This document shows positions 20,499 to 41,402 of a stretch of 64,000 nucleotides of DNA, piece by piece. The translations under genes and the position numbers were made by a program. Within the stretch, counting starts at the first letter, position 1, and the number at the start of each line of letters is the position of its first letter. The notes beneath the pieces were generated by a model that saw only the letters and a program-made list of their open reading frames with translations, had not been told where the DNA came from and made no database searches. Source of the DNA: Candidatus Altimarinota bacterium (GTDB lineage Bacteria; Patescibacteriota; Gracilibacteria; CAIRYL01); assembly GCA_965250085.1 (NCBI GenBank), contig OZ252287.1, positions 1,248,001 through 1,312,000 of the forward strand, written 5' to 3'.

Positions 20499-20575
20499 GG
20501 AGCGGTAGTTCAGTTGGTTAGAACGCCACACTGTCACTGTGGAGGTCGCGGGTTCGAGTCCCGTCCGTTCCGCCA
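20499..20575 (+). tRNA. tRNA-Asp(GTC)
   Basis: GGAGCGG/CCGTTCC acceptor stem, CCACA-CTGTCAC-TGTGG anticodon arm, GGTTCGAGTCC, CCA. Confidence 0.97.
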
Positions 20576-21581: not shown

Positions 21582-23033
21582 TTAGAAACCATCTGGTTTG
21601 TGGGTAAAAGTTCTCAGCATCTTTTGTTTTCGAAATTTTTTACTAAGTTCGCCCAAACATAAAGAAAAAGCATCTGCGAGATCGTCATGAGATTCTTTTC
21701 CAAGGTTCACAAGTTGATTAACAAGTTCTTTAGCACCGTGTTCAGGAAAGAAGACTTTTCCACTCTGGGGGAGATGAGAAACAGCAGCTAAACGAGAATG
21801 TTTATCTCCATGTACTCTTATGGGTTTCGCAAGTAGATCGCGTTCTTTCAAATGCTCCACTACAGCAGATTGATATCCCACATCTTCGACATAAATTTGA
21901 GCTTTATGCCAACCAGAAAAACTATTCAAAAGATTACTAAGGGCATCAAGGGTTGCCAGATGAGTCATTCTTGCATTGAGAATTTGAGGCAATACATAAA
22001 ATTTATAGTTGTTTCGGTTTCCTACTACAGCAATTGGCACAGCAGCTGTGTAATCTGCTGTTTGTTTTTGAGAAATAGCTAAATCCACGCCTATGCCTAC
22101 AAACTCATAATCAAAAGTAATGCTACTATCGTAATATTGAATCCACTCAGGCCAGATGGGTCTTGCTGTAGTATTTATGATTCGCAAAAGATATTCTCTG
22201 TACCAAGATTCATCACTGCCTACGTTTCTCCTCAGACGCAGAAGCCCTTGCTCGGAAAAACGTTCTGGCCATAAACAATCTTCAGATTTATTAATTAATG
22301 GATATTCTCGTACCTCTGCATCAATTTCATTATTTTGTGCTTTGTGAATAAATCTCATCATTACTGAATCGTCATGGAGTAGATTTCCCACCATTATAAG
22401 TCGAGTTCCTTCGTTCCCGGCAGGTATGACTTCTCCAGTCAGAAATAAAAAAGTTTTGTCTCTGCTTTCTTTTGTTTTTACAGAAGAGATATCTTCAATA
22501 TCATCACAAATAATTAAATCGGGCCGATGTTCTTTGTGTCGAACTCCTCGCAAACTCTGTTCAGTAGAAGCTGCCAATATTTTTGCTTCATATTTGGCGA
22601 GAACAAGTGAGTTTTGACTCCACTCAGCATTGCGAGTAAACAAAGGTCCAAAATCTCTTCGTAAAAGTTCATTCTGTTCTAATTCTTCACGAATATTCTT
22701 GAGCAGCAACTGTGCCTGTTGTTGAGTCTGAGAAAGCAACACTATAAAATTTTTTTGTTGTTTTCCCAAAATACTCCAGAGCAAATATGAAAGAGTAATG
22801 ATAGTTGATTTTGCAGATCCTCGAAATGCCATGAGGAGAAATGTCTGCACACTCTCATCTTCAATTATTCTAAAAATCTCGTGATGGAATTCTGCCAGTG
22901 GATACTTGATATAATGAGAAAAATAAGTAGAAAAAAAGAGCAGAAAGCTTTCGTAAACTGCAGCCTTGCGAGTGCGAGGATGCTGAAGAGTTTGGAGTAA
23001 TTCGCCTTGAGATATTTGTGAGTTATTCATCAT
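21582..23033 (-). CDS. Phage terminase large subunit-like protein
   Basis: AFRGSAKST, RPDLIICDDIED, GVDLA, HDDLADAF. Confidence 0.88.
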   Translation of the reverse strand: MMNNSQISQGELLQTLQHPRTRKAAVYESFLLFFSTYFSHYIKYPLAEFHHEIFRIIEDESVQTFLLMAFRGSAKSTIITLSYLLWSILGKQQKNFIVLLSQTQQQAQLLLKNIREELEQNELLRRDFGPLFTRNAEWSQNSLVLAKYEAKILAASTEQSLRGVRHKEHRPDLIICDDIEDISSVKTKESRDKTFLFLTGEVIPAGNEGTRLIMVGNLLHDDSVMMRFIHKAQNNEIDAEVREYPLINKSEDCLWPERFSEQGLLRLRRNVGSDESWYREYLLRIINTTARPIWPEWIQYYDSSITFDYEFVGIGVDLAISQKQTADYTAAVPIAVVGNRNNYKFYVLPQILNARMTHLATLDALSNLLNSFSGWHKAQIYVEDVGYQSAVVEHLKERDLLAKPIRVHGDKHSRLAAVSHLPQSGKVFFPEHGAKELVNQLVNLGKESHDDLADAFSLCLGELSKKFRKQKMLRTFTHKPDGF

Positions 23034-23478
23034 CTGAAGGTATGTTTAAGGACTGGTTTGATTCATTCGTTTCTTGCTTCTGGGGAAGCACGAGAGAAAT
23101 GGCTGCGGCAACCTTTTGCTGCTGTTCTTCCGTGAGTGGAGCTGGTTTTTCTAAAGATGCACTTACTTCTACTCGTTGGCGATATGCATGGTGACGGTTC
23201 TTAAGCCAAAAAATTATAGAAGTAATATTTCCTTCTTGAATAGCACTCAGAAGTTTAGATTCCGTCATATCATTCATCATCGCCACTCCATCTTGAAGCG
23301 CTATATCAGAGGTATCCATGAAAGAAGCATCTTCTTCTCTCCAGCGATAATAGGTGGCACGAGAAATACCTGCTTTTTCACAAGCAACTTGTACAATCGG
23401 AATCTTTCTGAGATATCCAAGAAGAATTTCTTGTTTCTGCTCGGTTTTAGCGACGACTGATTTCGTTTTTTTTGGCAT
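23023..23478 (-). CDS. Terminase small subunit-like HTH protein
   Basis: IVQVACEKAGISRATYYRW, SIIFWLKNR; overlaps the large subunit start. Confidence 0.75.
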   Translation of the reverse strand: MPKKTKSVVAKTEQKQEILLGYLRKIPIVQVACEKAGISRATYYRWREEDASFMDTSDIALQDGVAMMNDMTESKLLSAIQEGNITSIIFWLKNRHHAYRQRVEVSASLEKPAPLTEEQQQKVAAAISLVLPQKQETNESNQSLNIPSDDE

Positions 23479-23503
23479 ATTGTATAAAAGAAAGAACAAA
23501 AAA

Positions 23504-24292
23504 TTATTGAACGAGTACCGCTTTCTGTTGAGTGAGTTTTTCCCAACGCTGAATAATTACCTCACAATAATGGGCATCAAGTTCCATCATCAAACACTTT
23601 CTCTGCGTTTGTTCGCAAGCCAGTAAAGTAGACCCTGAACCTCCAAATGGGTCACAAACAACTCCTCCTATTTGAGAGCTATTCAAAATTAATCTGCGAA
23701 GGAGCGAGATTGGTTTCATGGTAGGATGAAGCGTGCTCTTTTGTGGGCGTGGACAAAATAATACACTTCTGTCTGAACTCTTTTGGAAAGCATGTTTTCC
23801 TTTCCATCCATAGAGTATGAGTTCATGTTGGGGGTTATAATCAAGTCTACTCATAACCGCATTATTTTTTACCCAGAGAAGCAATTGAGAAATATGCATC
23901 CCCAGTTCTGTCACAGCATCTCGTAATGAGAAAACCATGCGGTCGGTATTGAAAATATAGAAACTGTTTGTCTTCGATAAATATGGAGACAGATTATTGA
24001 GCCACTGCCGTGAGAAGTGCTTATATTCGCCTGTACTCTGCAAGTGGTCGTTGGCAATAATCTTATGTTTTTTCTGGTTCATAAAATCTTGTTTTGCTTC
24101 CACAACAGCTACTCCATAGGGCGGGTCAGTAAGCAACAAATCAATCTTGTGTTTCTCACAAAGTAGCCTCATGTGTTCGGTATTTGTCGCATCTCCGCAG
24201 AAAAGGTGATGTTCACCGAGTTGCCAGATTTGTCCCATCTGAGTTTTGGATTTAGTTGATTTTTCTTGGCGTGTTGCCAGTGAGTTCTTCAT
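23504..24292 (-). CDS. N4/N6 DNA methyltransferase (beta class)
   Basis: TDPPY, HPTMKP, DPFGGSGST. Confidence 0.92.
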   Translation of the reverse strand: MKNSLATRQEKSTKSKTQMGQIWQLGEHHLFCGDATNTEHMRLLCEKHKIDLLLTDPPYGVAVVEAKQDFMNQKKHKIIANDHLQSTGEYKHFSRQWLNNLSPYLSKTNSFYIFNTDRMVFSLRDAVTELGMHISQLLLWVKNNAVMSRLDYNPQHELILYGWKGKHAFQKSSDRSVLFCPRPQKSTLHPTMKPISLLRRLILNSSQIGGVVCDPFGGSGSTLLACEQTQRKCLMMELDAHYCEVIIQRWEKLTQQKAVLVQ

Positions 24293-25535
24293 AGCGAGAA
24301 AGGATAAGAGAACAAAAGCGGGGATCGATTTCCATCAGATATGCAGTGCGTTGTAACTGTTCACAGGCAATTAAAGTTGAACCAGATCCTCCAAAAAGAT
24401 CCAAAACAAGATTACCAACCTTACTACATCTCAAGAGAGGCTTTTGCAGAAGTTGTGGTGGCTTTTGAGTAGGATGTTGGTACTCATTAGCTGGTAAACG
24501 TTTTACCAGCCAGATATTCAGCAAATCGAGAATATCTTCAGCAGTACGATTGCCAGTTTCTATCTCTGGATTCATGACTTCGTGTAAGTTGTTGTGTTTG
24601 GTGTTCAAATAAGGCTTGCCTCTAATGCTATACACACATGGCTCATAGATTTTATTGAACGCTATTTTAGGGGTCGCATTTTGATTATTCTTGATCCAAA
24701 GACAGACACGTTTATTCGTGAGTCCTGATTTCTCAGCTAACGATTGAAGAAGTCCAATATACTGCTCATCACACCACCAAAAACTATGACAATCTTGGTG
24801 GCAATATTTCAGTCCAACTTCCAGTGCTGTGTATAAGAAATCAGAGTATTCAGCTTTTGATTTCCCATCGTTCACTTCACTCTTGCTGTATTGTCTCTTG
24901 CCACCTATGCCAGCACTATAGTCCAGTCCGATGTTATACGGCGGATCACAAAAAAGAACATCTGATTTCTTCTTCTGCATAAGCTTTGAGACATCTTCTG
25001 CGCTTGTGGAATCTCCGCACATCAGACGGTGCCTTCCAAGGGTATAAATATCGCCAAGCTTTACCGTTACTTCCCCGAGTTCTTCAAATTTTTCTTCCAT
25101 ATCGAATTTATCATCTTCAATGGATAACAGATCTGACCAAATAGTTCCAAGGTCACTCTCATCAAAACCAATATCCAGAAGAAGGTTCATGTCAAATTTC
25201 TTCAAGAGTTCAAAATCCCATTTGCCTGTATTTCTATTAAGACGAAGATTGAGTTCTTTTTCTTTCTCAATATTTGAGATATTCAGAAAAACAACAGGGA
25301 CATCTTCCATGCCCAGTCTTTTGGCGACTTCCAAACGAAAATGTCCGCCAATGACAACATTCTTTCGTTGCTTGGCTTTGTTTACAAGAATTGGATCAAC
25401 AAATCCAAACTTCTTGATACTTTCTATCAGATACTTCATATCTCCTGCTCCCCATTTACGTGGATTATAGGGAGCGGGATTGAGGTCAGAGATGCTGACT
25501 TGATGGATAGTCGGTTTATTTTTGAAATAGTTCAT
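24252..25535 (-). CDS. ParB N-terminal domain fused to N4/N6 DNA methyltransferase
   Basis: PAPYNPRK, GFVDPILVN, IGGHFRL; CDPPY, HPTQKP, DLFGGSGST. Confidence 0.92.
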   Translation of the reverse strand: MNYFKNKPTIHQVSISDLNPAPYNPRKWGAGDMKYLIESIKKFGFVDPILVNKAKQRKNVVIGGHFRLEVAKRLGMEDVPVVFLNISNIEKEKELNLRLNRNTGKWDFELLKKFDMNLLLDIGFDESDLGTIWSDLLSIEDDKFDMEEKFEELGEVTVKLGDIYTLGRHRLMCGDSTSAEDVSKLMQKKKSDVLFCDPPYNIGLDYSAGIGGKRQYSKSEVNDGKSKAEYSDFLYTALEVGLKYCHQDCHSFWWCDEQYIGLLQSLAEKSGLTNKRVCLWIKNNQNATPKIAFNKIYEPCVYSIRGKPYLNTKHNNLHEVMNPEIETGNRTAEDILDLLNIWLVKRLPANEYQHPTQKPPQLLQKPLLRCSKVGNLVLDLFGGSGSTLIACEQLQRTAYLMEIDPRFCSLILSRYEELTGNTPRKIN

Positions 25536-26377: not shown

Positions 26378-29300
26378 ATGCCTCTTGCTATTGAAACTGC
26401 ATCGGAATCTCCTTCTCAAAAGTTGGAACAAGTGAGTGCAACTCTGAGAAGATTGTATGGAAGAGGATTTGAAATTAAAACATTTTCTGATCCTGGAAAA
26501 GGGGTTATGAAGATAGAATCAGGAGGAGACTTCCATTTGAATGAGGCGAAACTGGCTGGACTGACTCTTGAAAGCTGTATTGCTCAGACGATTAGTGTGG
26601 CTGAGGCTTGGCAGATGCAAATAGGCATACGACAAGACCCTCAATTTGCAACAGAAGTAGCAACGTATGAAGCACATAAAGATCGGCCATCCTACAAACT
26701 CTTGTATGGAGTATTGTTTGAAAGTGTTGCTTTACGTGACAAGGCTTTGACAGATAGTTCATTACAACAAGTCGCAATGCATACTGCCCGGCAGAGATTG
26801 CAAAAATTAAAACGAAGATTTCCTCATGTACTGCCTCCCCAAGTCCAATACTTGATAGGACTGATTGATCCTGACTCTCGGGAAATTCAAGACACTGAAG
26901 TACAGAAAGCAATCGGAGATCTTCAGTCTTCAGGTATATTACGCAAACTTTTTGACCACCGCGTGAATGCTGGAACGAAGCTGAGGACGATTCATGGGCA
27001 GATCTTTCAGGACTACAGATATTTTTTACGACAGGCTCAGCATCCAGATGCAAAATGGGCAAAACAAAAAAAGGAACCAAAGAAAATCCGGCAGAGGTCA
27101 AGAGAAGAAATAGAGCAGATTATGAATCCGCCAGGACGCATTCCCCCTTCTCACCAACTCCCTCCAGCTCCACCGGAAGTTTTGGAGGAAATGTCTCAAG
27201 AATCATCCTCTGAGCCCGAAACACCAGATCCATCATCTGGACCTGAGCCAGAAGAATCAGAAGAAGTACCAGAGCTTCCGGATATGCCTTCTCTGCCAAT
27301 TCCAGAACAAAATGACGCCTCAGATAAGTCTTCGTCTACTCCTCCAGACAGTCCTCAGGGTACACCTGATTATCAAGATGAATACTCCACACCCGAAGGT
27401 GGAGAATTTGAAAAAGATCCTTCGGGGAAAGGCTATAAATTAGAAATATCGCCACCCCTTCTCGGGTACTATTCAACTGACAGAAAGAGCTATTGGAATG
27501 CACAGCGTAAGAAATGGGCCAACAAAAGCAGCCTTACTCGATATAAAAATATCGCCAGGTTTACAGGAAAAAAATACAATCTCTCTGGGGAAATTAGTGG
27601 ACAGAATTTAAAACCATTTCCCTTGCCAGTTGGATATGTTCCTGATCTTGATTCTTTGCAATACACAGGAGACAAGCCAACTGTGTATCGTGATCAAAAT
27701 GGTTGTTTTCAGATAAAACTTTCTGGGCAAGGCAAATGCCAATTGAGCATTGATTTTTATAAAGAAGATGACCAAAAATCGCCACATCCCATTTCTGAGG
27801 ATAGTGAGCAAATGTACGCAGGATCACTCTCGGGGAATGCGCAGCAGGCATTTGTGAAAGCAGAAAAAGAAGTGGATTCAAAGAAAAAAGCAGCAATAGT
27901 TCGTGATTACGTGAGGAAGAATCATTTTTATCCACCAGGTAAAAATGATATGGAAACAATGAATGCTGCAAAAAAGATACAAGCAGAGTTACAAAACATT
28001 TCTGATGCCCAAAATTATATTCATAATTTAGACAATTCTCCGCATTTGGAATGTTATTCGGCAAATAATCTGATGGTAGCAATGGTAAGAGCTCTTAGAA
28101 TTCCTGCACGGATTGTTACTGGGCATCACGTGCAACATACAAACACAAAAGGAAATGCCGAAATTAATTCAGCCAATGGCCATGGATGGTGTGAAATTTG
28201 GGATGGCAATAGCTGGGTTGGGTTTGATGCCACTCCTCCACCTGATCTAAATGACCCAAAAAATAAATCAGATCCAGCTGATCAGGATGAGAATGAAGAG
28301 CAAGAACCACAAGATCAATCGCCGGCAGAAAATGCTGATGATGGTGCAGAACGAACGGATACAAGTGAAGATGATGGAGAAGGAGAAGAAGGTGGAGAGC
28401 CACAGGATGGAGCAGATGATGGGCAGCAAAGTGATGAAGAAGGGGATGGTGAAACAAGTGAAAAACCGCCAGGAGAAAAAGGAGAAGGAGATGCTGATGC
28501 GGAAATTGCTAATGAGGAAGATGGAAAAGGTAGTGAACAAGACGGCGATGGTGGAGAACAAACTGATGAAGTAGATGATGACTTTGATCCCAAAGAAGAA
28601 TTAGAGAGGATGTATGAAGAATTAATAGAAGAAACTGCAGGTATGCCAGATGAAGAGGAAATAAAAAGGACATTACGAGAGATTGAACGTGAGGCAGCAG
28701 CACAACAGGCACTTGATCCGGAAGAAAGGTATGTACAAGATAAACATCCTGGATTAACACCAGAACTCAGAAGGCAAATAGCTGAATTTATTAGGGAATT
28801 TCGGAGAGATATGCAAATTATTGAACAAATTCCAAATCCTGATCCCGAATCTCCACATACTACGTTTATGGAAGCGTTTAAAGCAATGATTGATCGTATT
28901 GTTTCCCGTCGTTATGTAGAGCGAAGGGTACGCAAATATCCGACAACAACGGGAAGACTGGTGAGACCCGTAACTCGACATACTGATAAGTTGGCTGGAA
29001 AAAGGCAGTCATACGCTTTCAAGACACGAGAACGAAAATTATTTGAAGAAAAAAAGATTACAAAGGTACGGTGGCGTACGATTATTGATCGTAGTGGCAG
29101 CATGGATAGTCAGAAACTACGGACACAACAACAAATTGAAGTACTTAAAAATGCCGTTGTTGCCGAAAAACAAATTGAACTGAATGAACTTTCTGCTCGT
29201 CTCAAGCAAGATTTACGGCTAGAAACAGAAACGTGGCAATTTGGTGGTCCTGACCCAGAGACCGGTCAGCAATTTTCTTGTATCAAGCCACTTTCCAGTA

Positions 29301-30106
29301 CTTTTGATGAACTTGAACAAGCTGCCATATGGCATGCAGCAGCAAGTGCTCCTGGAGGAACCAATGACTTTGATCCATTGGAAGCTATTTTCCGTTCTTT
29401 GGCTGCAGAAGAAGCCGAGGCACGAAGTAATGATGAACTATCAATCTTAGAACGGATTCGTGCTGGTTTTCTTATTCGTGAAATTAATGCTGTCCAGGAA
29501 CTTGGGAGGAAAGGAGAAGATGAACTGGATGAAGATGAAGAAGTATATTTTGAAAATCTCACGAAAGAAAGCCCAGAGAGTATATTTCGACGTCTGCAGG
29601 ATTTACTCCCCCGGACTTCAGGAGATCCAGCAGAGATACAACAAGAACAAGCCTTTTTACGACAACGTATCGATGGCACTAATGCAGTTCAAATGTTTCA
29701 AGAGTGGACACGACAGTTTATTGGCAATAAGTATCTTTCTGATGAAGAAAAAGATTTTTTCCGAGAACTTGATATTTCTGATGCAAATTTAGCTGCGATT
29801 TATAAAGACTGGCTTCAGGTTCTGAAGAGAAAGCAAGGAAAAAACATTGAACCAATCTTGGAAATTATTGAAGTGAGCTCTGACGGAGGATCAAATGATC
29901 CAGCACGGTTACAAAATATTGTTCGCTCTCTGCGTGACCTAGGGATTATCGTACTGTGCTATGGACTCGGAAATGACGCTGATGCCGCCGTTCGCAACTA
30001 TTACAATGACTATAATCCTTCAGAAGGAGGAATGCTCTGTCACAATTTGTTGGATTACCCTGAAAAAAAGGCTCGAGCCTGGCAGAATATGCTTGACAGA
30101 GTGTAG
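26378..30106 (+). CDS. Large transglutaminase-like (Cys-His-Asp) plus acidic linker plus vWA domain protein
   Basis: ECYSAN..ALRIPARIVTG, GHGWCEIW, FDATP; MIDAS IIDRSGSM...GGTND...SSDGG. Confidence 0.8.
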   Translation: MPLAIETASESPSQKLEQVSATLRRLYGRGFEIKTFSDPGKGVMKIESGGDFHLNEAKLAGLTLESCIAQTISVAEAWQMQIGIRQDPQFATEVATYEAHKDRPSYKLLYGVLFESVALRDKALTDSSLQQVAMHTARQRLQKLKRRFPHVLPPQVQYLIGLIDPDSREIQDTEVQKAIGDLQSSGILRKLFDHRVNAGTKLRTIHGQIFQDYRYFLRQAQHPDAKWAKQKKEPKKIRQRSREEIEQIMNPPGRIPPSHQLPPAPPEVLEEMSQESSSEPETPDPSSGPEPEESEEVPELPDMPSLPIPEQNDASDKSSSTPPDSPQGTPDYQDEYSTPEGGEFEKDPSGKGYKLEISPPLLGYYSTDRKSYWNAQRKKWANKSSLTRYKNIARFTGKKYNLSGEISGQNLKPFPLPVGYVPDLDSLQYTGDKPTVYRDQNGCFQIKLSGQGKCQLSIDFYKEDDQKSPHPISEDSEQMYAGSLSGNAQQAFVKAEKEVDSKKKAAIVRDYVRKNHFYPPGKNDMETMNAAKKIQAELQNISDAQNYIHNLDNSPHLECYSANNLMVAMVRALRIPARIVTGHHVQHTNTKGNAEINSANGHGWCEIWDGNSWVGFDATPPPDLNDPKNKSDPADQDENEEQEPQDQSPAENADDGAERTDTSEDDGEGEEGGEPQDGADDGQQSDEEGDGETSEKPPGEKGEGDADAEIANEEDGKGSEQDGDGGEQTDEVDDDFDPKEELERMYEELIEETAGMPDEEEIKRTLREIEREAAAQQALDPEERYVQDKHPGLTPELRRQIAEFIREFRRDMQIIEQIPNPDPESPHTTFMEAFKAMIDRIVSRRYVERRVRKYPTTTGRLVRPVTRHTDKLAGKRQSYAFKTRERKLFEEKKITKVRWRTIIDRSGSMDSQKLRTQQQIEVLKNAVVAEKQIELNELSARLKQDLRLETETWQFGGPDPETGQQFSCIKPLSSTFDELEQAAIWHAAASAPGGTNDFDPLEAIFRSLAAEEAEARSNDELSILERIRAGFLIREINAVQELGRKGEDELDEDEEVYFENLTKESPESIFRRLQDLLPRTSGDPAEIQQEQAFLRQRIDGTNAVQMFQEWTRQFIGNKYLSDEEKDFFRELDISDANLAAIYKDWLQVLKRKQGKNIEPILEIIEVSSDGGSNDPARLQNIVRSLRDLGIIVLCYGLGNDADAAVRNYYNDYNPSEGGMLCHNLLDYPEKKARAWQNMLDRV

Positions 30107-30134
30107 TTTTTCCATTATAATATACAGATAACTT

Positions 30135-32456
30135 ATGACTCCCTTTCGAAATTTACCGGCTCACAAATTTCAATTTTTTTCTCTCGAGAGAACACAAGAT
30201 TATTTCATGGGAGAAAATAGAATTCTTTTTCGAAACTCGCTTGCAGAAAAGATACTTCAGAATGCTGAAGAATCGGATGAAAGTGAAAAATCCAAACTTT
30301 CTACGGAAGAAGTACAAGCTCAAGTTATGGAGGTACGAGCTCTGGTAGGAAGACTATCCGCTTTAAAAAAATTAAATACCTATGAAGGAAACGTGCCCGA
30401 AGCTACAGAAATAGAAATGGAACTCCCTCAGCTCCAATCTACAGAGGGCACTGAAACAGCAGATTGGAGTGATTTATTTGATCCTGATTTGTCAGAGATT
30501 ATGGTGCTCGAAGAAAATCCCGATTTAGTCAATAGAGATGAAGTACAACAGATTCGCCAACGTCTTGAAACACTGCTGAAGAATCCTCAAGTGGCTCAAC
30601 AATATGAAGAAATGTTTGGCACCGTGGTACGCGATTTTACTGTCGCAAAGAGGCTTCTCCGAGCTTATAAGCAAGGATATAGGGTAATGAAGAAAGGTGA
30701 TGGATATGAAAAATATTCTTTGACCAGTAGTGACAAAATACGTGCTGCCAGACAGCTATTACGAATCTTAGATAACTTCGAAAAACAATGTCGCGAAGAA
30801 GAACAGAACATTCATACTCAAGTGAAAAGATCAGGTCGTGATTATTCTGAAAGCGATCGGAAAAATTTAGAAAGAGTACAAAAACGAAGGCTAGAATGTC
30901 GGACTGAAATTAATACCCTCTTACTAGATGCTGAAGTATGGATTGCAAAACATATCGATGATTTGGCTCATGATCGAGCTGTTTTACAACGTCGTCCAAA
31001 AGGGGAACATTTTCCGCCACGAAATCAATTAGTTTCTATAGGACGTCACAGCGCTTATATTGAAGTAGAATCACGCACCGAACAAATGTATGGGAATGAA
31101 AGTGCTGGACACTCCATCCTGCCTGCTTTGCGAGCCGGACACAATGTTGAACTCCTTGGTCCAACCGGGACGGGAAAAACAAAGTTGGGTATCGCTTCTG
31201 CGCAAGTGTTTTCAAATAAAAATCCAGTCGTCGTTTCCGGTGGACCGGAGCTTTCTCGTGACACTTTTTTTGGTTTTGCATCGGATGTCGGAGTACGTGA
31301 ACAGGGTGCCTGTATTCAGTGTATGAGAGAAGGAATGGTAATGATTCTCGATGAAGATAACCGTACCCCTCCAGAGATCTTGGGACAGATTAAATTTATT
31401 TTAGGGCTTAAAGCTGGGGATGTCTTCATGCATCCGGATACCGGTGAGGAAATTGTTGTTCAGCCGGGATTTGGTGTCATGGTGACCAGAAATGAAAAGG
31501 ATGAACACCACGAAGATCGGTTTGATCTTCCTCCGGATTATCGTCGTGAATTTACACACGGAAGTTTTGAAATTGATTATTATACCCCGGCAGAGATGTA
31601 CCATCGTTTCTTTTCACCAAAACTCAGCCATGGAGATAATTCGATTCCGCTTTCAGATGAAGAAATTGGAGGGACTATAGTACATGATACTGCTGATTTA
31701 GATAGTGTTGATCTCTCCAGAAGTGATATTTCTCCACTGTTGGCACTCTGCTTATCAGCGAAGCAAGTTCAAACACTTTATAAAACAAAAGGAAGTAAAG
31801 GGCTTGAGAATGCTGTCTTTGAATCTGGATTTTTGATTGATCTTTTTGATGAATGGGCAGAAATGAGCATGAGACAAAAGAGTGATGGGAGTGAAGTTGC
31901 TTTTTTAGAATTTTTAGAAACAAAACTGATTGAATTTCTCAAACGTCCAATTGGTAGTCCGGATCGAAAAAAAATTATCCCTATCCTTGTCAATCATGGA
32001 TTTTTTCGGCGAAAAAATGCCGCTGATTTTGCCACTCCAAATGAAGGTGAACCACTGGACGATATGGCATTCCAAAGTCTTCTGAGGAGTGCCGATGTTC
32101 GTTTTCAAGACCCTACTGGAAATACTCTTAATGATCGAGAAGTGGCAACGCTCAATCCTTTTGGTTTTTATGAAATTCCAGAGATTCCAGATCACCCACT
32201 CAAGCCTATAATTGAAGCCTTTGCAGAACAATATCGCGAATTATGCAGCACTCATGGCATGAGAGCAGTAAGTTGTCCCACAGATACCTCATTTAATGCT
32301 TTGTTACCGCGTATTATACAAAGTGTACGGGCTGTTTTGCGTACAGCTGATGCGAGCAGTGCTGAGGGCTATGTTATTGCGCTTGATAAAGCATTGAACG
32401 AAGGTGGGCAACAAGGATTTTTAGAAAAAACACAAGAAATTTTTGACCTCCTGTAG
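30135..32456 (+). CDS. MoxR/CbbQ-type AAA+ ATPase with long helical N-terminus
   Basis: Walker A GPTGTGKT, Walker B MILDEDN, VQPGFGVMVTRN. Confidence 0.85.
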   Translation: MTPFRNLPAHKFQFFSLERTQDYFMGENRILFRNSLAEKILQNAEESDESEKSKLSTEEVQAQVMEVRALVGRLSALKKLNTYEGNVPEATEIEMELPQLQSTEGTETADWSDLFDPDLSEIMVLEENPDLVNRDEVQQIRQRLETLLKNPQVAQQYEEMFGTVVRDFTVAKRLLRAYKQGYRVMKKGDGYEKYSLTSSDKIRAARQLLRILDNFEKQCREEEQNIHTQVKRSGRDYSESDRKNLERVQKRRLECRTEINTLLLDAEVWIAKHIDDLAHDRAVLQRRPKGEHFPPRNQLVSIGRHSAYIEVESRTEQMYGNESAGHSILPALRAGHNVELLGPTGTGKTKLGIASAQVFSNKNPVVVSGGPELSRDTFFGFASDVGVREQGACIQCMREGMVMILDEDNRTPPEILGQIKFILGLKAGDVFMHPDTGEEIVVQPGFGVMVTRNEKDEHHEDRFDLPPDYRREFTHGSFEIDYYTPAEMYHRFFSPKLSHGDNSIPLSDEEIGGTIVHDTADLDSVDLSRSDISPLLALCLSAKQVQTLYKTKGSKGLENAVFESGFLIDLFDEWAEMSMRQKSDGSEVAFLEFLETKLIEFLKRPIGSPDRKKIIPILVNHGFFRRKNAADFATPNEGEPLDDMAFQSLLRSADVRFQDPTGNTLNDREVATLNPFGFYEIPEIPDHPLKPIIEAFAEQYRELCSTHGMRAVSCPTDTSFNALLPRIIQSVRAVLRTADASSAEGYVIALDKALNEGGQQGFLEKTQEIFDLL

Positions 32457-32470
32457 TATATTTCCTCCCT

Positions 32471-34198
32471 ATGACTCAATTCGAACACGAATGGCAAGAC
32501 CTGGCAACCGGCTTAGAGCAGTTACAAACTGTTTATCTAGGTTATGAAGAAGACCTGGAAGATCTGGCATTTGATATGCGAAACAGGGCATTGGGAAAAG
32601 AGAGCCCTCTGCGTTTGAATATTGATGGCGCCAGATTGCGCATTAATCAGCGGGAAGAAGAAGTAACAATGATTGAGCAGGTTGCGCAGTTTATTCATAT
32701 TCTTTATGAGAAGCTGGGAGATGCAGATAAGGCTTCTGTCAATGGCGAGCTCATGGAGCGTGTAGCTGCTATTGCTAGCAACATTCGCACCGGTATTCGT
32801 GATCGCATTGAACCATTGGTACCAGAGATAGGAAAACTCCGTTGGCGTGATGTAAATGTGGAGATCGTGAGGATCAAGCATGCTTTTCGTGGTGAACAAC
32901 TTGGAGCAGGTATGACCAAATTGCGCCAAATTATCCATCGGAGGGAATTGGGGCAGGAGGATTACACTTTGGAGCACGAAGATATTCATTTGGATATTAA
33001 AAAAGAAGACTCAGATGAAGTTATGTTACAAAAACTCGCAACATTTAGCCGCGCAATTCAGCGAAAGTGTGATGAAAAATTTCCAGAACCAATGGAGCGT
33101 GAGGTGGAACAATTTCCAAGTAGCGCAGTATATTGGACAGAGGTGGCAACCGGTTTCATGCAACTCAAGGAACAGTTTCGTGGCTCCGATCTTGGAGCAG
33201 AATTTTCTAGTCTCAAAAACCTTATTGACTCTGAAAGAATTAAAGAAGCCGGTTACCACATTGAAACCGAGTGGGCTACGCTGCAGATAGAACCAGACAC
33301 GCCATACTACCAAATGGCTGACCAAATAGCTGAATTTGTTGAAATAGTCCAAAAAGGGAATCCTGACAAATTCCCTGAACCGTTTACTGTTGCTGAGGCA
33401 AAAAAAGCACTTGATGCTCAAAAATTCCATTGGCGTGATGCTATTGCGGCAATAGATCATCTCCAAAGCTCTGCTTACCCAGCAAATGAGTATCCGGCTC
33501 TTCAGGAACTCAAGGCAAGAATGGAAGCCGGGACACTCGGAGTTGATTCAGATATGGCGATTTATATCGGTCCCATTCGTTTGAATATCAAAAAAACAAA
33601 TAGCGACACTGATATTCAACATAAAGTAGCCGTGTTTATTGGTGAGCTCAAACAAGTCGTACCAGATGAAAAGACGTCGACTACAGAACCACTTGATCCA
33701 AAATTGGATCAGACTTTCTGGCGAGATATTGAAGCGGCTTTGATCAGCTTAGAAGATGTATATGGCACGAATAAAACATTTCGAAAGCTGGTTTTCTTTA
33801 TAAAGGAAGGTATCTTGGGGGCGAATGATTTTACTGCCAACGTAGGTGGACACACTTTAGAGATAAAAAGTACTGATAGTGATTTGGAAATGCGCGATAA
33901 GCTCAATACATTCATTCGTGAACTCAATGAAGGCAGAATTGTAGAACTTGATCGTAAGGCAATGGAGCGAATACAAGAACTTGAGAGAAATCAAATAGAG
34001 CTCGAAGAAGAATATCGTAGACAAACACAACGAGCACGATTAGAGTTTGAAGAGCAAAGACAAACTGCCAGACGTGTTACTGAACAGAAGGAACAAAGCA
34101 TAGAGCAACTCGAAAATGAACTCAGAAGAGTGCGGATGAGGCCGACCCCAGCACCAAGACCGGCTCCGGTTCGTCCGGTTCGTTCTTATAGCGGGTAG
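32471..34198 (+). CDS. Protein with five ~80-100 aa repeats, C-terminal coiled coil and Pro/Arg tail
   Basis: Recurring W(R/Q/T)(D/E)...L.I...D..M..K(L/V)A.FI. Confidence 0.75.
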   Translation: MTQFEHEWQDLATGLEQLQTVYLGYEEDLEDLAFDMRNRALGKESPLRLNIDGARLRINQREEEVTMIEQVAQFIHILYEKLGDADKASVNGELMERVAAIASNIRTGIRDRIEPLVPEIGKLRWRDVNVEIVRIKHAFRGEQLGAGMTKLRQIIHRRELGQEDYTLEHEDIHLDIKKEDSDEVMLQKLATFSRAIQRKCDEKFPEPMEREVEQFPSSAVYWTEVATGFMQLKEQFRGSDLGAEFSSLKNLIDSERIKEAGYHIETEWATLQIEPDTPYYQMADQIAEFVEIVQKGNPDKFPEPFTVAEAKKALDAQKFHWRDAIAAIDHLQSSAYPANEYPALQELKARMEAGTLGVDSDMAIYIGPIRLNIKKTNSDTDIQHKVAVFIGELKQVVPDEKTSTTEPLDPKLDQTFWRDIEAALISLEDVYGTNKTFRKLVFFIKEGILGANDFTANVGGHTLEIKSTDSDLEMRDKLNTFIRELNEGRIVELDRKAMERIQELERNQIELEEEYRRQTQRARLEFEEQRQTARRVTEQKEQSIEQLENELRRVRMRPTPAPRPAPVRPVRSYSG

Positions 34199-34255: not shown

Positions 34256-36337
34256 TTAAGATTCACCATTCGCCTTATGTAACAAGTTATCTCTAAATTC
34301 GGAAATTCCCCGCCGCCCCTTTGTGAGAGTTTTTACAAGATCAAGATCACCCACTGGTTTTCCCATAAGTAGCAATTGACCATACTCATCAGGCGCTGGC
34401 TTATCTCTTTTACCGGCATATGGCGTTGGTTTTAAATGTACAGGGATGCTTTGTATCGTGTCACTATCGGTGTCCAAAGCATGGAGAACGCCGGCACTAA
34501 TTCCATTTTGTGCAGTGATGTCTTGAGGGTCAATTTCCCCATCTGCCCATTGATAGTGCCTATGGTAAAAAGCGTCTGCAAAACGAACCTTTACTCCACC
34601 ATTTTCATCTGTAGTGAGCAAGAGATTCATAGTATGATCCTCCACCTCTTCTGGACCTTCAGAGTTCATCAGATATTCACCCTCTTCCGAACGGCGAGCA
34701 TCGTATTTCCCATTCATTTGAATTGGTGCATTAACCACAAAATCAAAGGTTCTCAGCTCATATCTCTGAATCTCCTCAACCTGTGAAAGTAAATATTGAT
34801 ACTGCTCAAAATCACCACTCGCAATCTCGTCATATGCCTGTCGTAATAGTTTATTCACATGGACCTTTTGCCACATGTCAAACAGCAACTGTTTCGCCTG
34901 AGCATGATGACGACAATCCCCTAATCCAAGAGCCAGACTCGTAGAAATATTTGTACGAGAATCTACTCCCTTTTTTGCACCATCAGCTACACCTCCTGTT
35001 TGTACCAGGCCTCTCAGTGTTTTGTCATAAACTTTATGTCCATCACTTTGAAGATTTTCTAAGTCAAGTTTCTCTGTTTCAAAAGTAGATCGGAGGAATA
35101 TATCCACAATCTTCAAAAATTGGTCAATATCAGCAACATCCATCAAAGATGCTGGAGCTCCAGAAAGTATTTGTCTTGCCTCCTCTTGAGAATACTTCAA
35201 ACAACTCAAATCTATCATTTCGGCAATTGGGGTTGAAAGTAGAGTTTCGATTTGGCCACGATCAGTACGATTGATAGCGTGATCGCTAAGATCTCCTCCA
35301 AAATCAAAATTCCCACCCACAAAGTTAGAGCTCAGTCCTCTGTAGCTAAAAGAATTTGCGCGCCACATTTCTGGAAGAAAATTCTTTTCTATTGTTGTTG
35401 TTGCAAAATCTTTTCCAAGACGACTTTGTTTTTCTTGCAATTGCTCTTGTGAGAAATTCTTAATGTCATCTAGATGTTGTCGCAAGGCATCAATAGCCTC
35501 TCGGTTCGCACTATTTGGAGGGGCAAGTTTTTCCAAATTAGATAATGTCGACTCAATCTCCCATGTTGCCGTGGCAACGGATAAGACTTTTGTTGTGATA
35601 TCTTTAATTGCTGTAGCGTCTTTTTCAGCGATACAAGCCAACTCTAACATTGTAACAACACACCAGTAGTCTTCTGACTCAACACCACCATCACGTTCGC
35701 AGGAGAGGTAGACCATTTGTGCCACTCTCTTTGCACGTTCCACTTGTCCCAATTCCAGGAGACGATATACCACATTAACGCCAGGATAGTAGTCAAAATC
35801 CATAAGATATCCATTTTCATAAGCCTCAAGAGACTTCTCGGTTTCTCTTTTTACTAAATGTGCCTTTCCCATCGCTCCATAAACTTCTCCATTTACTTGT
35901 CCTTCTTTCACAAGATCATTGCAGAGTTCAAGGGTTCTGTCAGGCTGATTCGTTTTATTACAAGCCACCGCACAAAATTCACAAACAATGCTTGAAGAAC
36001 GAAATTCATCATTCTCACATTGTTCATACACTCGAAGCATATTTTCAAATGATCCAAGAGCCTTAAAATGATTAAAAATCATCATAAGGGTGGAAGGTGG
36101 AAAATCGATCAGATCATTTTCATCAAAAGCATAGTGCTCCAAGCGACTGATTTTTTTGTCTTTTTCTTCTGTCTCACTCCGATGAGAAAGACATTCTGCC
36201 ATAGCTCCATGTTGTTTTCTCTGCAGGTCAATTATGCCTCTATTTTGGGTTGTTGCTAGATCAAGGTCTATCTCTGCCGGATTAGTGCTAAATTTTTGAA
36301 ATTCGAGGACGGGTACGGATGTATTAGAAGATGACAT
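34256..36337 (-). CDS. TPR (DUF4071/TRAFs-binding-like) protein with C-terminal putative Cys-His-Asp domain
   Basis: GEVYGAMGK, YYPGVN, DYWCVVT.LE; GDCRHH...EDHT...ADAFY. Confidence 0.7.
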   Translation of the reverse strand: MSSSNTSVPVLEFQKFSTNPAEIDLDLATTQNRGIIDLQRKQHGAMAECLSHRSETEEKDKKISRLEHYAFDENDLIDFPPSTLMMIFNHFKALGSFENMLRVYEQCENDEFRSSSIVCEFCAVACNKTNQPDRTLELCNDLVKEGQVNGEVYGAMGKAHLVKRETEKSLEAYENGYLMDFDYYPGVNVVYRLLELGQVERAKRVAQMVYLSCERDGGVESEDYWCVVTMLELACIAEKDATAIKDITTKVLSVATATWEIESTLSNLEKLAPPNSANREAIDALRQHLDDIKNFSQEQLQEKQSRLGKDFATTTIEKNFLPEMWRANSFSYRGLSSNFVGGNFDFGGDLSDHAINRTDRGQIETLLSTPIAEMIDLSCLKYSQEEARQILSGAPASLMDVADIDQFLKIVDIFLRSTFETEKLDLENLQSDGHKVYDKTLRGLVQTGGVADGAKKGVDSRTNISTSLALGLGDCRHHAQAKQLLFDMWQKVHVNKLLRQAYDEIASGDFEQYQYLLSQVEEIQRYELRTFDFVVNAPIQMNGKYDARRSEEGEYLMNSEGPEEVEDHTMNLLLTTDENGGVKVRFADAFYHRHYQWADGEIDPQDITAQNGISAGVLHALDTDSDTIQSIPVHLKPTPYAGKRDKPAPDEYGQLLLMGKPVGDLDLVKTLTKGRRGISEFRDNLLHKANGES

Positions 36338-37793: not shown

Positions 37794-37907
37794 ATAACTT
37801 AGTGTATTATTGTACACCTTTATATGTAAAAAGCAAATCTAAATGACATCGTTATAAAACAGTGATACCCTGCAGGATGGCTTTTTTTAGTGTCTTTTAG
37901 AAGTATT

Positions 37908-39323
37908 ATGAGAAAATTAGAAGTTCTCCTTATTCATCTCCCGCGTAAATCTAAAATTATTCCGCGTATCACTCTGATGCCCATGGGTATCTTTGCTATA
38001 GCTGATTATCTGGACTCAAATGGCACACCTGTACAAATTATCCACGAAGGGCTTGAAAAACAGATCAATCCAAAATTCTCATTATTACGATATGTTCGTA
38101 AAAACAACATACACATCTGCGCATTTGCTTTACATTGGCATCAGCAAGCTCGCAGGGTCATACAGATGGCTCGAAAATTGAAGGCAAAAATACCTCAAAT
38201 GACCATTATTATTGGCGGTGTGACTGCTTCTATTTTTGCTGATGAAATTCTCGAAAAGCATCCAGAAATTGATTTTGTGATCAAAGGAGACTCAGAAATA
38301 CCAATGCATCAACTCTGCACGGCATTACAAGCAGATAAACTAGATATTTTACCAACTATTCCCAATTTGATGTGGAGAAGTGCAAAAGGTGAAATTCAAA
38401 AAAATGACGACTATCAATTAGACAATACACAGGTACGGGAGATTTCTTTCACAAATTTTAAACTTCTGAAAAATTATAGAAGATACCTTTCTTTTCGCCA
38501 TAACCAGCCTCTTATCTGTGGTCAAAAAGCGTTTTCTTTTAGTGCCGGAAGAGGTTGTAATGCCGGGTGTCCCTACTGTGCTGGTTCACGCCGAGCAGAG
38601 CAAAAATACTACAATCGAACTAAAGTACAACTTTTCCCGCATGGCTACGTAATTAGGCAACTGGAAGGAATGATACAAAACGGCGTTCATACTTGGAACT
38701 CATGTTTTGATCCCGATCCGAAATCGGACTATTATATTAAGTTATTTCGGGAAATCAGAAAAAAAGACCTTACAATAACTCATTTTTTTGACTGTTTTGG
38801 CTTGCCAACAAAACAATTTTTAGATGAATTTCGAAAAACATTTACAAAAAAATCGGCTATCAATATTTCTCCCGAAACCGGATCGGATGAGCTCCGCAAA
38901 AAAATTCGCACCTTTTACTATACCAATAAGGAACTTTTGGAGATCTTAGCATATATTATAAGACAGCGAATGAATTGCTCAGTGTATTTTTCCACAGGGC
39001 TCCCATTTGAAAAAAAAGAAGACTTGTTGCAATCTTTTAAACTCATAGATACTATTCGCAACAAATTTCCAAAAGTGAGAATTTATTCAGGTGTTATCGA
39101 TTTGGAACCCGGATCAGCACTATTTGACTATCAATCCAGACTAGGGGTGCGGAGTAAGATTCGTAACTTCGAAACTTTATTGGAAGTGCAAAAGAAAACT
39201 TTAGAGGTAAATTATTCAACGAGAGAATTTTCACGAAGACAAATTGAGAAGCACTGTGATCTTTTGAAGATTGAAGCACAATGCCGTAAAAAGAAATCAT
39301 TTTTTTTTACAAGATTTTTGTAA
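37908..39323 (+). CDS. Cobalamin-binding radical SAM protein; C-terminus possibly frameshifted
   Basis: PMGI..IA.YL, IIIGGVTA, IKGDSE, RGCNAGCPYC, SPETGS. Confidence 0.88.
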   Translation: MRKLEVLLIHLPRKSKIIPRITLMPMGIFAIADYLDSNGTPVQIIHEGLEKQINPKFSLLRYVRKNNIHICAFALHWHQQARRVIQMARKLKAKIPQMTIIIGGVTASIFADEILEKHPEIDFVIKGDSEIPMHQLCTALQADKLDILPTIPNLMWRSAKGEIQKNDDYQLDNTQVREISFTNFKLLKNYRRYLSFRHNQPLICGQKAFSFSAGRGCNAGCPYCAGSRRAEQKYYNRTKVQLFPHGYVIRQLEGMIQNGVHTWNSCFDPDPKSDYYIKLFREIRKKDLTITHFFDCFGLPTKQFLDEFRKTFTKKSAINISPETGSDELRKKIRTFYYTNKELLEILAYIIRQRMNCSVYFSTGLPFEKKEDLLQSFKLIDTIRNKFPKVRIYSGVIDLEPGSALFDYQSRLGVRSKIRNFETLLEVQKKTLEVNYSTREFSRRQIEKHCDLLKIEAQCRKKKSFFFTRFL

Positions 39324-39449
39324 AAGAAAAAAACTCCCAGTGCACTTATACAGTGTGGCGAAGAAAGCGTGCCAGCAGTGTAGGTATTTCAAAGAATGCT
39401 ATCAGTCGAAATAAGCATGGTAAGGAGCAATTTTGTTTAATGGAATTTC

Positions 39450-40439
39450 TTATCCAAATGTTGCCAGTTTTGCTTCCTTAAGCGTCTCTAGCGCTTGTCC
39501 GCAAGCGGCCTTGTGTCTTATTTCTTCATCAATTGCAGGCGCATATGCATATGAGAATCCAGTTTCATCGAGATTCTCCAATATCCCTTGCAAGCTCTGA
39601 CTAGAGAGTGCTTCTTTATAAAGCACATCTTCTTCTCGAAGCAAGCCGCGAAATCCTTGCTGCTCAGCATTTTCTGTCATGTTGAGCGGTGAAAGGCGAA
39701 TATAAATATCTTCCATGCCAAAATAATCTTTAAGTTTTCTAAAATCATATTGCCTTCCCTCAAATAAAATTACATTCAAAGAAACTTTCCTCGGATTAAG
39801 CTTGCGAAATTCTTTTACCCATTTACCCATTTCTGGAAGACTCATAATGGCTCCGATATTTTTCATGTCGAAGAGCGCGGCTCTTGTTTCTTCGTCAGTG
39901 CCATGAGCACTGAACTGCATCATGATGTGCTTTGCAATCTCAGGATGATCAAGAAATTTCTCTACCCCCTGCCGCCAACCAATAGTACTCATGCCAATTT
40001 TGACATGAGGATAGCGATCGGCAAGTTCATAAATCGATCCGAGCACATTCTCAATATTGAGACATGGCTCACCCATACGTGTATAGAGCACATGAAACTC
40101 TTTGCTTTCGAGAGGATCCGTAGAACGCCCATACGCTTTTCCCTGTTCCAAAAGGTAGTCTATTTGTCCAACAAGTTCTCCAGCGGTGAGATTGCGCTTG
40201 AAGCTCCTTCGTACCGCACAAAATTTGCACCCCATAGAGCATCCGAGCATCGAACAGATAGTAAGAACCCGTTTGTGCATATCGCTCACATTTCCGAAAT
40301 CTCGAAATCGATATGGTCTGGTGCCTGCTTCGTTTTCATTTGGCAAAAAGACGTCACCCATTTCTAAAAACTCACCTTTGCCAAGCTCGGCAACATACGC
40401 TTGCCCGCATTCCATCTCAATAGCCTTTATCGTTTTCAT
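39450..40439 (-). CDS. RlmN/Cfr-like radical SAM enzyme (divergent)
   Basis: SMLGCSMGCKFC, MGEPCLN, AACGQ. Confidence 0.8.
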   Translation of the reverse strand: MKTIKAIEMECGQAYVAELGKGEFLEMGDVFLPNENEAGTRPYRFRDFGNVSDMHKRVLTICSMLGCSMGCKFCAVRRSFKRNLTAGELVGQIDYLLEQGKAYGRSTDPLESKEFHVLYTRMGEPCLNIENVLGSIYELADRYPHVKIGMSTIGWRQGVEKFLDHPEIAKHIMMQFSAHGTDEETRAALFDMKNIGAIMSLPEMGKWVKEFRKLNPRKVSLNVILFEGRQYDFRKLKDYFGMEDIYIRLSPLNMTENAEQQGFRGLLREEDVLYKEALSSQSLQGILENLDETGFSYAYAPAIDEEIRHKAACGQALETLKEAKLATFG

Positions 40440-41396: not shown

Positions 41397-41402
41397 TTCT
41401 CA

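Follow-up and report, generated by a model that had tools for sequence, protein, structure and literature searches.

Midasin (Rea1) is a eukaryotic AAA ring protein with a D/E-rich region and a MIDAS domain that pulls factors bearing ubiquitin-like (UBL) domains off pre-60S particles. In prokaryotes, AAA+ ATPases are widely found in association with vWA proteins and transglutaminase-like (TGL) peptidases, with a function described as unexplained and known only by prediction (PMC3495828). One form, the operon of MoxR, a vWA (DUF58) protein and a YebA/TgpA-type protein, has been predicted to encode a membrane-proximal ATP-dependent degradation system in which the vWA protein recruits, MoxR unwinds and the TGL domain cleaves (PMC3495828). 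MoxR and vWA proteins also occur in ternary conflict systems of the VMAP, iSTAND, FtsH and beta-propeller types (PMC7159879), and in the PFNA cluster of bifidobacteria, which comprises the kinase gene pkb2, fn3, a MoxR-type aaa-atp gene, duf58 and tgm, with or without the phosphatase gene prpC (PMC8430577). We analyzed a stretch of 64,000 nucleotides from a Candidatus Altimarinota bacterium (contig OZ252287.1, positions 1,248,001 to 1,312,000; the window), in which three adjacent genes, here called A, B and C, encode a transglutaminase-vWA protein, an AAA+ ATPase and a repeat protein.

We propose with moderate confidence that the three proteins form a cytoplasmic, ATP-driven machine for protein remodelling or processing, that is, a fused and soluble form of the AAA+ (MoxR clade)/vWA/TGL-peptidase kind with C as its client. 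The fused, enlarged A-type form was found solely in Patescibacteria (Candidate Phyla Radiation, CPR) in the searches made.

Architecture of the three proteins

The three open reading frames (ORFs) are co-oriented on the plus strand, with gaps of 28 bp (A-B) and 14 bp (B-C), exactly as given in an original prediction made from the DNA sequence (coordinates of all features in Table 1). A match in 12 of 12 positions to the sigma-70 consensus TTGACA-17-TATAAT spans the end of A and the A-B gap and ends 14 nt 5' of the start codon of B; as a consensus match alone, it may be a candidate internal promoter for B and C. Four sequencing runs, all from one study, contain this DNA, and no RNA dataset containing it was listed. 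No segment resembling a transmembrane (TM) helix or signal peptide in hydrophobicity was seen in any of the three proteins, whose Kyte-Doolittle means over 19 residues reach 1.07 at most.

Protein A begins with a helical region and continues with a Pro/acidic linker, a beta-sandwich, a transglutaminase-fold core, a D/E-rich linker, a second helical region and a vWA/MIDAS domain. Among 5.8 billion clustered proteins, a word-based search returned only five homologues at similar length (37-42% identical). The alignment of close homologues comprises six sequences; of two wider alignments, one of 24 rows adds relatives from whole genomes and the other has 21 rows. Pfam Transglut_core (PF01841) matched A with an E-value of 4.9e-10 (40.1 bits, cut-off 23), the sole match over cut-off in the genome. 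The positions claimed for an intact Cys-His-Asp triad agreed with the translation: C559, H602 and D617 are encoded at nucleotides 28052, 28181 and 28226, and all three were invariant in the close homologues (6/6) and in both wider alignments (24/24 and 21/21). When a profile of the pre-core and core regions was compared with the PDB, it matched the periplasmic domain of TgpA (6g49, 1.1e-7) and a putative cysteine protease (3isr, 2.5e-4).

Residues 325-1242 of A were modelled with AlphaFold2 on the 21-row alignment (mean predicted local distance difference test score, pLDDT, 76.6; the model number plus 324 gives the residue of A). In the model, Cys559 (model residue 235) opens a helix (H235-248), and His602 and Asp617 lie on or beside neighbouring strands (E277-284 and E289-292). 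The triad stands in a well-modelled core, and the enzyme part, beta-sandwich included, superposed on 6g49 with 256 of 288 residues aligned (VIA-align Z 19.2, root-mean-square deviation 4.0; Foldseek E 2.6e-9). The N-terminal part of A is, as profiles and model indicate, a TgpA-like beta-sandwich followed by a transglutaminase-fold Cys-His-Asp core.

Two database homologues of A (P0006 and P0007) carry Trp wherever all others have Gly, which fits genomes with TGA=Gly (table 25) that were translated with TGA=Trp. Between 5 and 34 in-frame TGA codons were listed for the A-like genes of seven genomes; with the table 25 reading, three such genes were whole and had Gly at conserved sites (L034-L036, from genomes G114, G379 and G022).

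The enzyme had been said to be flanked by Pro/acidic linkers, and so it is. Residues 241-360 are Pro/acidic, and residues 601-760 contain 62 D/E, 52 of them in 641-760; length and sequence of this D/E-rich linker differ between homologues. For the vWA domain at the C-terminus, the window's own sequence stayed below the Pfam VWA cut-off (E 0.1, 13.3 bits vs 23.8), as did relatives with VWA_2 (E 6e-4 to 4e-3). The 21-row profile of the region matched solved vWA/I-domains over most of its length (TRAP, 5.7e-7; integrin alphaX/alphaM, about 1e-5), and the modelled domain aligned with TRAP (VIA-align Z 18.5), Rea1-MIDAS (Z 18.4, 210 residues aligned), CMG2 (Z 18.1) and the NorD vWA domain (Z 17.6, 209 aligned). 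Foldseek placed the MIDAS domain of Rea1/MDN1 at the top among vWA structures, with E-values of 1.5e-4 to 6e-4 over 459-472 alignment columns.

Of the MIDAS residues, D904 is encoded at nucleotide 29087, and S1167 and D1169 of the SSDGG motif at about 29876-29884. D904, S906, S908, T995 and D1169 were invariant in the six close homologues, D904 and S908 in the 24 rows; in the 21 rows D904, S908 and the DG of the last loop were invariant, S906 was nearly so, and the GGT motif was conserved. D904 and D1169 lie at the ends of two model strands (E572-580 and E836-844). An insert estimated beforehand at roughly 150 aa, a fair figure, measures about 139 aa and separates the helix that follows GGTND from the strand bearing D1169. 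It is absent in 15 of the 21 aligned relatives; about 55-60 aa of it are common to the window's subfamily, and a further stretch is variable. On family profile and model, the C-terminal part of A is a vWA domain with a complete MIDAS. The proposed fusion of a transglutaminase-fold enzyme with a MIDAS-bearing adaptor is real and conserved.

Protein B has one AAA_5 module (aa ~330-470), which is preceded by about 320 aa of helical N-terminal sequence and followed by a conserved C-terminal region of about 300 aa. Thirteen homologues were found, and the gene is present in a single copy in the genome. Pfam AAA_5 matched with an E-value of 4.7e-9 (36.8 bits, cut-off 22), and AAA_3, the model for MoxR proper, was not listed at E≤1, a level at which HMMER filters can drop very weak matches. 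In 21 aligned sequences G347, K348, D406, E407, the sensor-1 Asn N453 and R471 were invariant and R470 was nearly so. The family profile of B had its best PDB match in midasin (7.6e-14, 4 stretches), followed by NorQ (1.1e-5), McrB (1.7e-4), CobS (0.017) and CbbQ (0.043). B also matched PHROG 249, annotated 'porphyrin biosynthesis' (3.1e-9), which we take to be a CobS-like family. Since the Walker A and B motifs, Asn453 and Arg471 are all intact, B appears to be an active AAA_5 ATPase, belonging to the MoxR clade in the broad sense of PMC7159879. The label 'MoxR AAA+ ATPase' given to B earlier holds for the broad clade and the AAA_5 match, but B is not a typical MoxR protein, given its 773 aa, its proximity to midasin and NorQ and the unlisted AAA_3.

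Protein C was described as a five-repeat protein, and hidden Markov models (HMMs) bear this out. The repeats are anchored on W-x-[DE] at residues 8, 125, 222, 321 and 417 and share pairwise identities of 12-32%. Single-position repeat HMMs, built from six orthologues with the window's row left out, each recovered all five repeats, with independent E-values of 1e-4 to 1e-14 for the non-cognate ones. In the model of C (mean pLDDT 75.3), each repeat folds as helix-helix-beta hairpin-helix (alpha-alpha-beta-beta-alpha), and the repeats are followed by a single long helix (471-555, 85 residues) and a disordered tail. This tail is the most conserved part of the C-terminal region: S574 and G575 are invariant in seven orthologues, and all 14 listed family members of at least 475 aa end in a Y/S/G-rich tail stopping at G or GE. 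Orthologues have four or five repeats. The family comprises 32 proteins at E≤1e-3 (HMMER, 1.84 billion representatives), among them several with a single repeat at the N-terminus and a remainder without a Pfam match. The word-based homologue search with C matched C itself alone, and neither Pfam (over cut-off) nor NCBIfam assigned it to a family. Comparison of the fold gave no match at E≤0.001 with Foldseek against the PDB or against BFVD, and VIA-align against 48,161 chains gave a best Z of 7.2, mostly coiled-coil matches to the long helix.

Two related loci described below hold further C-type genes. L003 has a second, diverged copy of C (16286-17746, minus strand) ending in ...SSGE, and L004 encodes a 248-aa protein with a single C-type repeat beside C (16813-17559, minus strand).

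Table 1. Features of the operon and its surroundings. Nucleotide positions are those of the window; model residues and pLDDT refer to the model of A.
Feature	Position (nt)	Strand	Residues and remarks	Model residues	pLDDT
Gene A	26378-30106	+	1242 aa ORF		
Beta-sandwich preceding the catalytic core of A	27440-27766	+	aa 355-463	31-139 (strands)	high, ~82-93
Transglutaminase-fold (papain-like) core of A	27794-28249	+	aa 473-624; helix/strand; Cys559, His602, Asp617	149-300	86-96
D/E-rich disordered linker of A	28250-28588	+	aa 625-737		~30
Disordered acidic stretch of A				311-413	~30
Helical segment of A				414-517	~50-83
vWA fold of A with about eight extra helices				518-918	~60-90
vWA domain of A, complete MIDAS	28901-30103	+	D904-x-S906-x-S908, T995, D1169		
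Helical insert in the vWA domain of A	29426-29842	+	~139 aa, about aa 1017-1155		~60-88
Sigma-70 consensus	30093-30121	+	end of A and A-B gap		
Gene B	30135-32456	+	773 aa ORF		
Walker A to Walker B of B	31158-31355	+	Walker A GPTGTGKT, aa 342-349; Walker B D406 E407		
Gene C	32471-34198	+	575 aa ORF		
Five repeats of C	within 32471-34198	+	aa 5-120, 122-217, 219-316, 318-412, 414-500		
C-terminal tail of C	34136-34195	+	aa 556-575; P/S-rich, ends RSYSG		
tRNA-Asp	20499-20575		one edge of the 30.7-kb insertion		
Large terminase, small helix-turn-helix (HTH) protein, two N6/N4 DNA methyltransferases	21582-25535	-	one methyltransferase fused to ParB-N; 0.8-4.8 kb upstream of A		
693-aa protein, convergent with C	34256-36337	-	MAP3K_TRAF_bd 2.8e-9; TPR-S 9.7e-6, just under cut-off		
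Radical-SAM gene	37890-39323		in the island		
Radical-SAM gene	39450-40445		in the island		
ATP-grasp gene	43231-44238		in the island		
Large serine recombinase	46051-47334	-	inside the island		

Conservation and genomic setting

A scan of species-representative genomes gave ten loci, all in metagenome-assembled genomes of Peregrinibacteria/Peribacteria. B lies directly 3' of A in all eight that could be checked, that is, in which DNA 3' of A is present (L001, L002, L003, L004, L005, L007, L008 and L010), and C follows in five of these eight (L002, L003, L004, L005 and L010). The exceptions were one locus with B fused to a long extension (L001, 1395 aa), one without C and one ending too early. 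A metagenome scan with the B alignment added one new A-B-C locus (L046) and near-duplicates of L004 and L005. The co-conservation of the three genes across genomes was thus seen in seven distinct loci, namely the window, L002, L003, L004, L005, L010 and L046, with a large AAA_5 ATPase as the constant neighbour of A. In a tree of the core region, the window grouped with a six-member Peregrinibacteria clade (support 99/99).

Beyond these loci the distribution is patchy. The A profile matched 40 of 401 sampled genomes of the class, and only one of 11 other genomes of the window's own family, weakly (5e-8, core only). In the phylum sample (401 genomes), strong matches (E≤1e-20) occurred in six further genomes outside the class, in four of which the match covers both the enzyme and the vWA part; many weak matches in the phylum were to the transglutaminase core alone. 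Eighteen stretches were fetched around the best class-wide matches, two of which repeat L001 and L004. Fifteen of the remaining 16 encode a protein with both transglutaminase and vWA parts, and in at least 13 of the 15 a large AAA_5-type gene is directly adjacent, recognized by Pfam (L024, L026, L027, L031, L033, L040 and L041) or by similarity to the L024 ATPase (L025, L028, L029, L030, L032 and L034). In one further subfamily the A-like proteins measure about 1000-1100 aa; their layout is the same, no insert interrupts the vWA domain, and an AAA_5 protein of 1220-1350 aa is encoded before them. Others comprise shorter A-like forms in TGA-recoded genomes and A-like forms followed by a B-like ATPase, one of these with leucine-rich repeat (LRR) proteins as third genes. 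The C profile matched neither the long ATPases of subfamily 2 nor the fused B of L001. In L041 (genome G189), the gene after the B-like ATPase (4417-5376, minus strand) is a paralogue of the C-terminal 215 residues of that ATPase (37% identity).

The operon had been placed inside an island, and comparison with the two nearest relatives agrees with this. These have the order SecA, RNase Y, 1-4 kb, MurB, RsmF. In the window MurB ends at 20410 and RNase Y begins at 51166, and the 30.7 kb inserted here are absent from both relatives. A tRNA-Asp gene marks one edge, and no att-like direct repeats were found of at least 12 nt between it and 21-56 kb, or of at least 14 nt between the left end and 45.5-51.5 kb. 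The island contains the terminase, two DNA methyltransferases, A-B-C, a TPR-S/MAP3K_TRAF_bd protein, two radical-SAM proteins, ATP-grasp, PnuC and NadR-like proteins, the serine recombinase and a DsbD-thioredoxin fusion. The TPR-S/MAP3K_TRAF_bd protein, whose gene converges with C, is not conserved in the other A-B-C loci. Elsewhere in the window there are two copies of an IS1595-family (ISXO2-like) transposase gene of 216 aa each (6144-6794, plus strand; 56318-56968, minus strand) and, outside the island, a gene (11140-13764, plus strand) whose 874-aa product carries domains of type IV coupling proteins (TrwB/TraG-like).

Several neighbours recur in shuffled order (window 37890-45882; L002, L003, L005, L010 and L046): a B12-binding radical-SAM protein, a second radical-SAM protein, a 331-aa ORF of no family, a RimK-like ATP-grasp protein, a PnuC transporter and a NadR-like AAA_28 protein. 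ATP-grasp and radical SAM are fused in L046 and L005. Identity to the orthologues is 31-42% for A, B and C, whereas the genes that the same loci have in common around them, namely the radical-SAM gene at 39450-40445, the 331-aa ORF, ATP-grasp and PnuC/NadR, are better conserved (39-65%). Just upstream of A, four loci (L002, L003, L005 and L046) carry a gene with a match over cut-off to the C-terminal part alone of the TCAD9 kinase-like model (PF19974). In L003, L005 and L046 it is accompanied by an inositol-monophosphatase-family gene; L002 has the kinase-like gene alone. A figure legend describes TCAD9 as 'associated with vWA-MoxR-VMAP' (PMC10910872).

Comparison with described systems

The YebA/TgpA-type operon provides the closest match to the enzyme part of A, which superposes on the periplasmic domain of TgpA. 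There, the TGL protein is encoded by a separate gene and has multiple TM helices, whereas A fuses TGL and vWA domains into one soluble chain with a D/E-rich tether. The ATPases differ as well, B being an AAA_5 protein with long extensions that AAA_3 did not match at E≤1, and a lineage-specific repeat protein, C, is added. Because its proteins are fused and have no membrane helices, A-B-C is not an operon of the YebA/TgpA type.

The MoxR-vWA ternary systems have in common with A-B-C a core AAA+/vWA pair and a third, lineage-variable protein; their effectors include peptidases, rarely transglutaminase-like ones (PMC7159879). The TCAD9-type kinase genes in related loci and a possible link to radical-SAM peptide processing are further likenesses. 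In contrast, no VMAP, iSTAND, FtsH or beta-propeller component was recognized here by Pfam, and since none of these third components is present, A-B-C is not one of the four described systems. The effector is N-terminal to the vWA domain in A, whereas the variable domains of the vWA component are C-terminal in the account of PMC7159879. The hosts also differ: A-B-C occurs in tiny-genome CPR bacteria, which were left out of the multicellularity statistics of that paper (PMC7159879).

Likeness to midasin extends over two proteins. The AAA module of B is closest to the midasin modules, and in A a D/E-rich tether leads to an insert-bearing MIDAS domain, for which Foldseek ranked Rea1/MDN1 first among vWA structures. 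Unlike in midasin, each chain of B has one AAA module and not six, motor and MIDAS domain are on separate proteins, A has a cysteine-enzyme domain, and the helix-helix-hairpin-helix repeats of C are not recognisably UBL. NorQ-NorD, CbbQ-CbbO and CobS-CobT likewise combine an AAA_5 motor with a MIDAS-bearing partner. Their partners lack a protease or transglutaminase domain and serve the activation of metal centres or enzymes, and B is more than twice as long as NorQ, CbbQ and CobS.

The PFNA cluster resembles the five-gene form of L003, L005 and L046, in which kinase-like, phosphatase-family, transglutaminase, vWA-type, AAA+ ATPase and repeat-protein functions come together. The match is thematic, and the parts are non-orthologous: TCAD9 stands against a Hanks-type kinase, the inositol-monophosphatase family against PP2C and the new repeat against FN3. 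In addition, the PFNA transglutaminase is membrane-bound and separate from DUF58 (PMC8430577).

The AAA+/vWA/transglutaminase-like theme (PMC3495828) and MoxR-vWA conflict systems (PMC7159879) are already in print, and A-B-C is therefore a variant rather than a new kind. A and B had no match in PADLOC-DB 2.0. The literature searched, the coverage of which was limited, contained no account of CPR bacteria in which a transglutaminase-vWA fusion protein is paired with an AAA_5 ATPase.

A proposed machine and alternative readings

In the machine that we propose, B would form a ring, as do AAA+ proteins of the same clade. The MIDAS domain of A would capture a carboxylate-bearing element of the client by analogy with midasin/Rea1, NorQ-NorD and CbbQ-CbbO, and ATP hydrolysis by B would pull on or unfold the client. 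The tethered cysteine enzyme of A would then cleave it; cross-linking appears less likely. C, which the original prediction had seen as a possible sensor or substrate, is the most likely client, with its four to five repeats and an invariant extreme C-terminal tail (...R-S/T-Y-S-G; ...S-S-G-E in relatives) that the MIDAS metal or the AAA pore might take hold of. In our own suggestion, the free carboxylate of Gly or a Glu at the C-terminal end could complete the MIDAS site. A complex prediction for the vWA domain of A and the whole of C (score 0.01, mark 0.32) weighs neither way.

Several points weigh against this proposal. Peptidase and transglutaminase chemistry cannot be told apart in A by sequence. 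The formation of a ring by B and the contact between A and B are drawn from the precedent of the family. The Rea1 MIDAS domain is not separable from ordinary vWA domains by Z (18.4 vs 17.6-18.5, which are ties), and the fold searches with C (Foldseek, VIA-align and BFVD) were uninformative on its repeat fold, which we do not claim to be new. The ATPases of subfamily 2 show a remote relationship to B that is confined to the AAA core (hhalign probability 28.6%, E 6e-4), and therefore A pairs with 'a large AAA_5 protein' and not with one orthologous partner. The A-B-C loci all belong to a single lineage, so that some of their synteny may reflect common descent and not selection. PADLOC-DB matched C with a weak hit of JetC coiled-coil type (E 0.0018), and the window's own genome has no TCAD9 gene.

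As to its biological role, the operon is island-borne, patchy, more diverged than its neighbours and accompanied by a TCAD9-type kinase gene in four related loci, because of which it may be an accessory, horizontally moving conflict or signalling module and not a housekeeping one. Provided that the proposed machine is correct, we rate the chance of this role somewhat below even. A bolder version, which we put forward tentatively and hold to be rather unlikely, is a 'split bacterial midasin with a blade'. Here an AAA_5 ring would work with the D/E-tethered MIDAS domain, which would grip the invariant C-terminal tail or the acidic loops of a dedicated multi-repeat client and pass this client on to the cysteine peptidase that shares its tether; the C-terminal peptide set free, bearing radical-SAM or ATP-grasp modifications, would serve as signal or toxin, and the whole would act as a CPR-specific conflict or communication system, not described before, on mobile islands.

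The alternative that fares best starts from the neighbouring genes. C could be a precursor whose tail is modified by the nearby radical-SAM and/or ATP-grasp enzymes, and the peptidase of A would release a signal or toxin from it under AAA-vWA control. Six of the seven loci have radical-SAM and/or ATP-grasp genes no more than 10 kb from A-B-C, in changing order and orientation: in the window, in L002, in L003 (radical SAM-SPASM and ATP-grasp beside C), in L005, in L010 (directly after C) and in L046 (the ATP-grasp/radical-SAM fusion beside the operon). Neither these neighbour families nor C turned up in the fetched loci of other subfamilies, and the conservation of the tail agrees with a processed end. 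A parallel exists in the peptide-processing modules of FxSxx-COOH type (radical SAM-SPASM) on vWA-MoxR ternary systems (PMC7159879, section 24), and TGL peptidases have been predicted to reverse peptide tags made by ATP-grasp ligases (PMC3495828). However, C is large and structured (575 aa, mean pLDDT 75), unlike the small variable precursors described, NCBIfam gives no family for it, and the zincin-like peptidase of the described systems is not present. The distances to the radical-SAM genes vary (3.7-10 kb in the window, where other genes intervene), these neighbours also accompany PnuC/NadR-like genes and could form a module of their own, and with loci from a single lineage the association may be inherited. 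We consider a maturation role of this kind unlikely.

A and B could also be a maturation system of MoxR type, like those known for gas vesicles, NorQD, CbbQO and the ATV tail, that builds or remodels an intracellular structure composed of C, with the transglutaminase as a true cross-linker. The 85-residue helix after the five repeats and an invariant Lys in repeats 2, 4 and 5 of C (K188, K385 and K477) would suit such a structure; TgpA, the nearest solved relative of the enzyme, is named protein-glutamine gamma-glutamyltransferase, and known AAA_5-vWA pairs are mostly assembly chaperones (PMC7159879). Patchy distribution and island location, on the other hand, fit poorly with a core cellular structure, C matches no recognised filament-forming family, and bacterial transglutaminase-like domains are mostly predicted to be peptidases (PMC3495828), making a scaffold-building function distinctly improbable in our view.

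The genes upstream of A raise the possibility that a prophage or phage-like element carries the operon, either as cargo or as a module for morphogenesis. On the opposite strand lie the terminase, the small HTH protein and the two methyltransferases, and in G189 (L041, 12522-16456) both methyltransferases recur (56-58% identity) together with a terminase (42%), 2-6 kb from another transglutaminase-vWA and AAA_5 pair. The pattern used brought up no relative of A among IMG/VR contigs, though, and tblastn of A and B against 50,697 phage records gave nothing; no portal, capsid or tail gene was seen among the window ORFs scanned with Pfam, the terminase alone of eight proteins given had a structural-type match in PHROGs, and the other 20-odd loci have no terminase, which leaves a phage origin very improbable. 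The original prediction had also allowed for host interaction, and equally hard to credit is a secreted or surface system of this kind, for although the lineage is thought to live host-attached (PMC8080830) and adhesion is a frequent function of vWA domains, no signal- or TM-like segment was seen in A, B or C, the ATPase partner requires cytoplasmic ATP, and the nearest MIDAS analogues in Foldseek, midasin and NorD, are intracellular.

For the association of AAA+ ATPase, vWA protein and TGL peptidase, the cytoplasmic remodelling machine proposed here would offer a tractable case. In A, a single soluble chain carries both binding domain and enzyme, and C is a plausible dedicated client; therefore, a mechanism of 'recruit, unfold, cut' is testable with three soluble proteins. 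The midasin-like traits in bacteria with very small genomes, i.e. the AAA module type, the D/E tether and the insert-bearing MIDAS domain, bear on the origin of the eukaryotic midasin architecture. If the conflict or peptide-signal reading is true, a defence or communication system would be added to what CPR bacteria possess.

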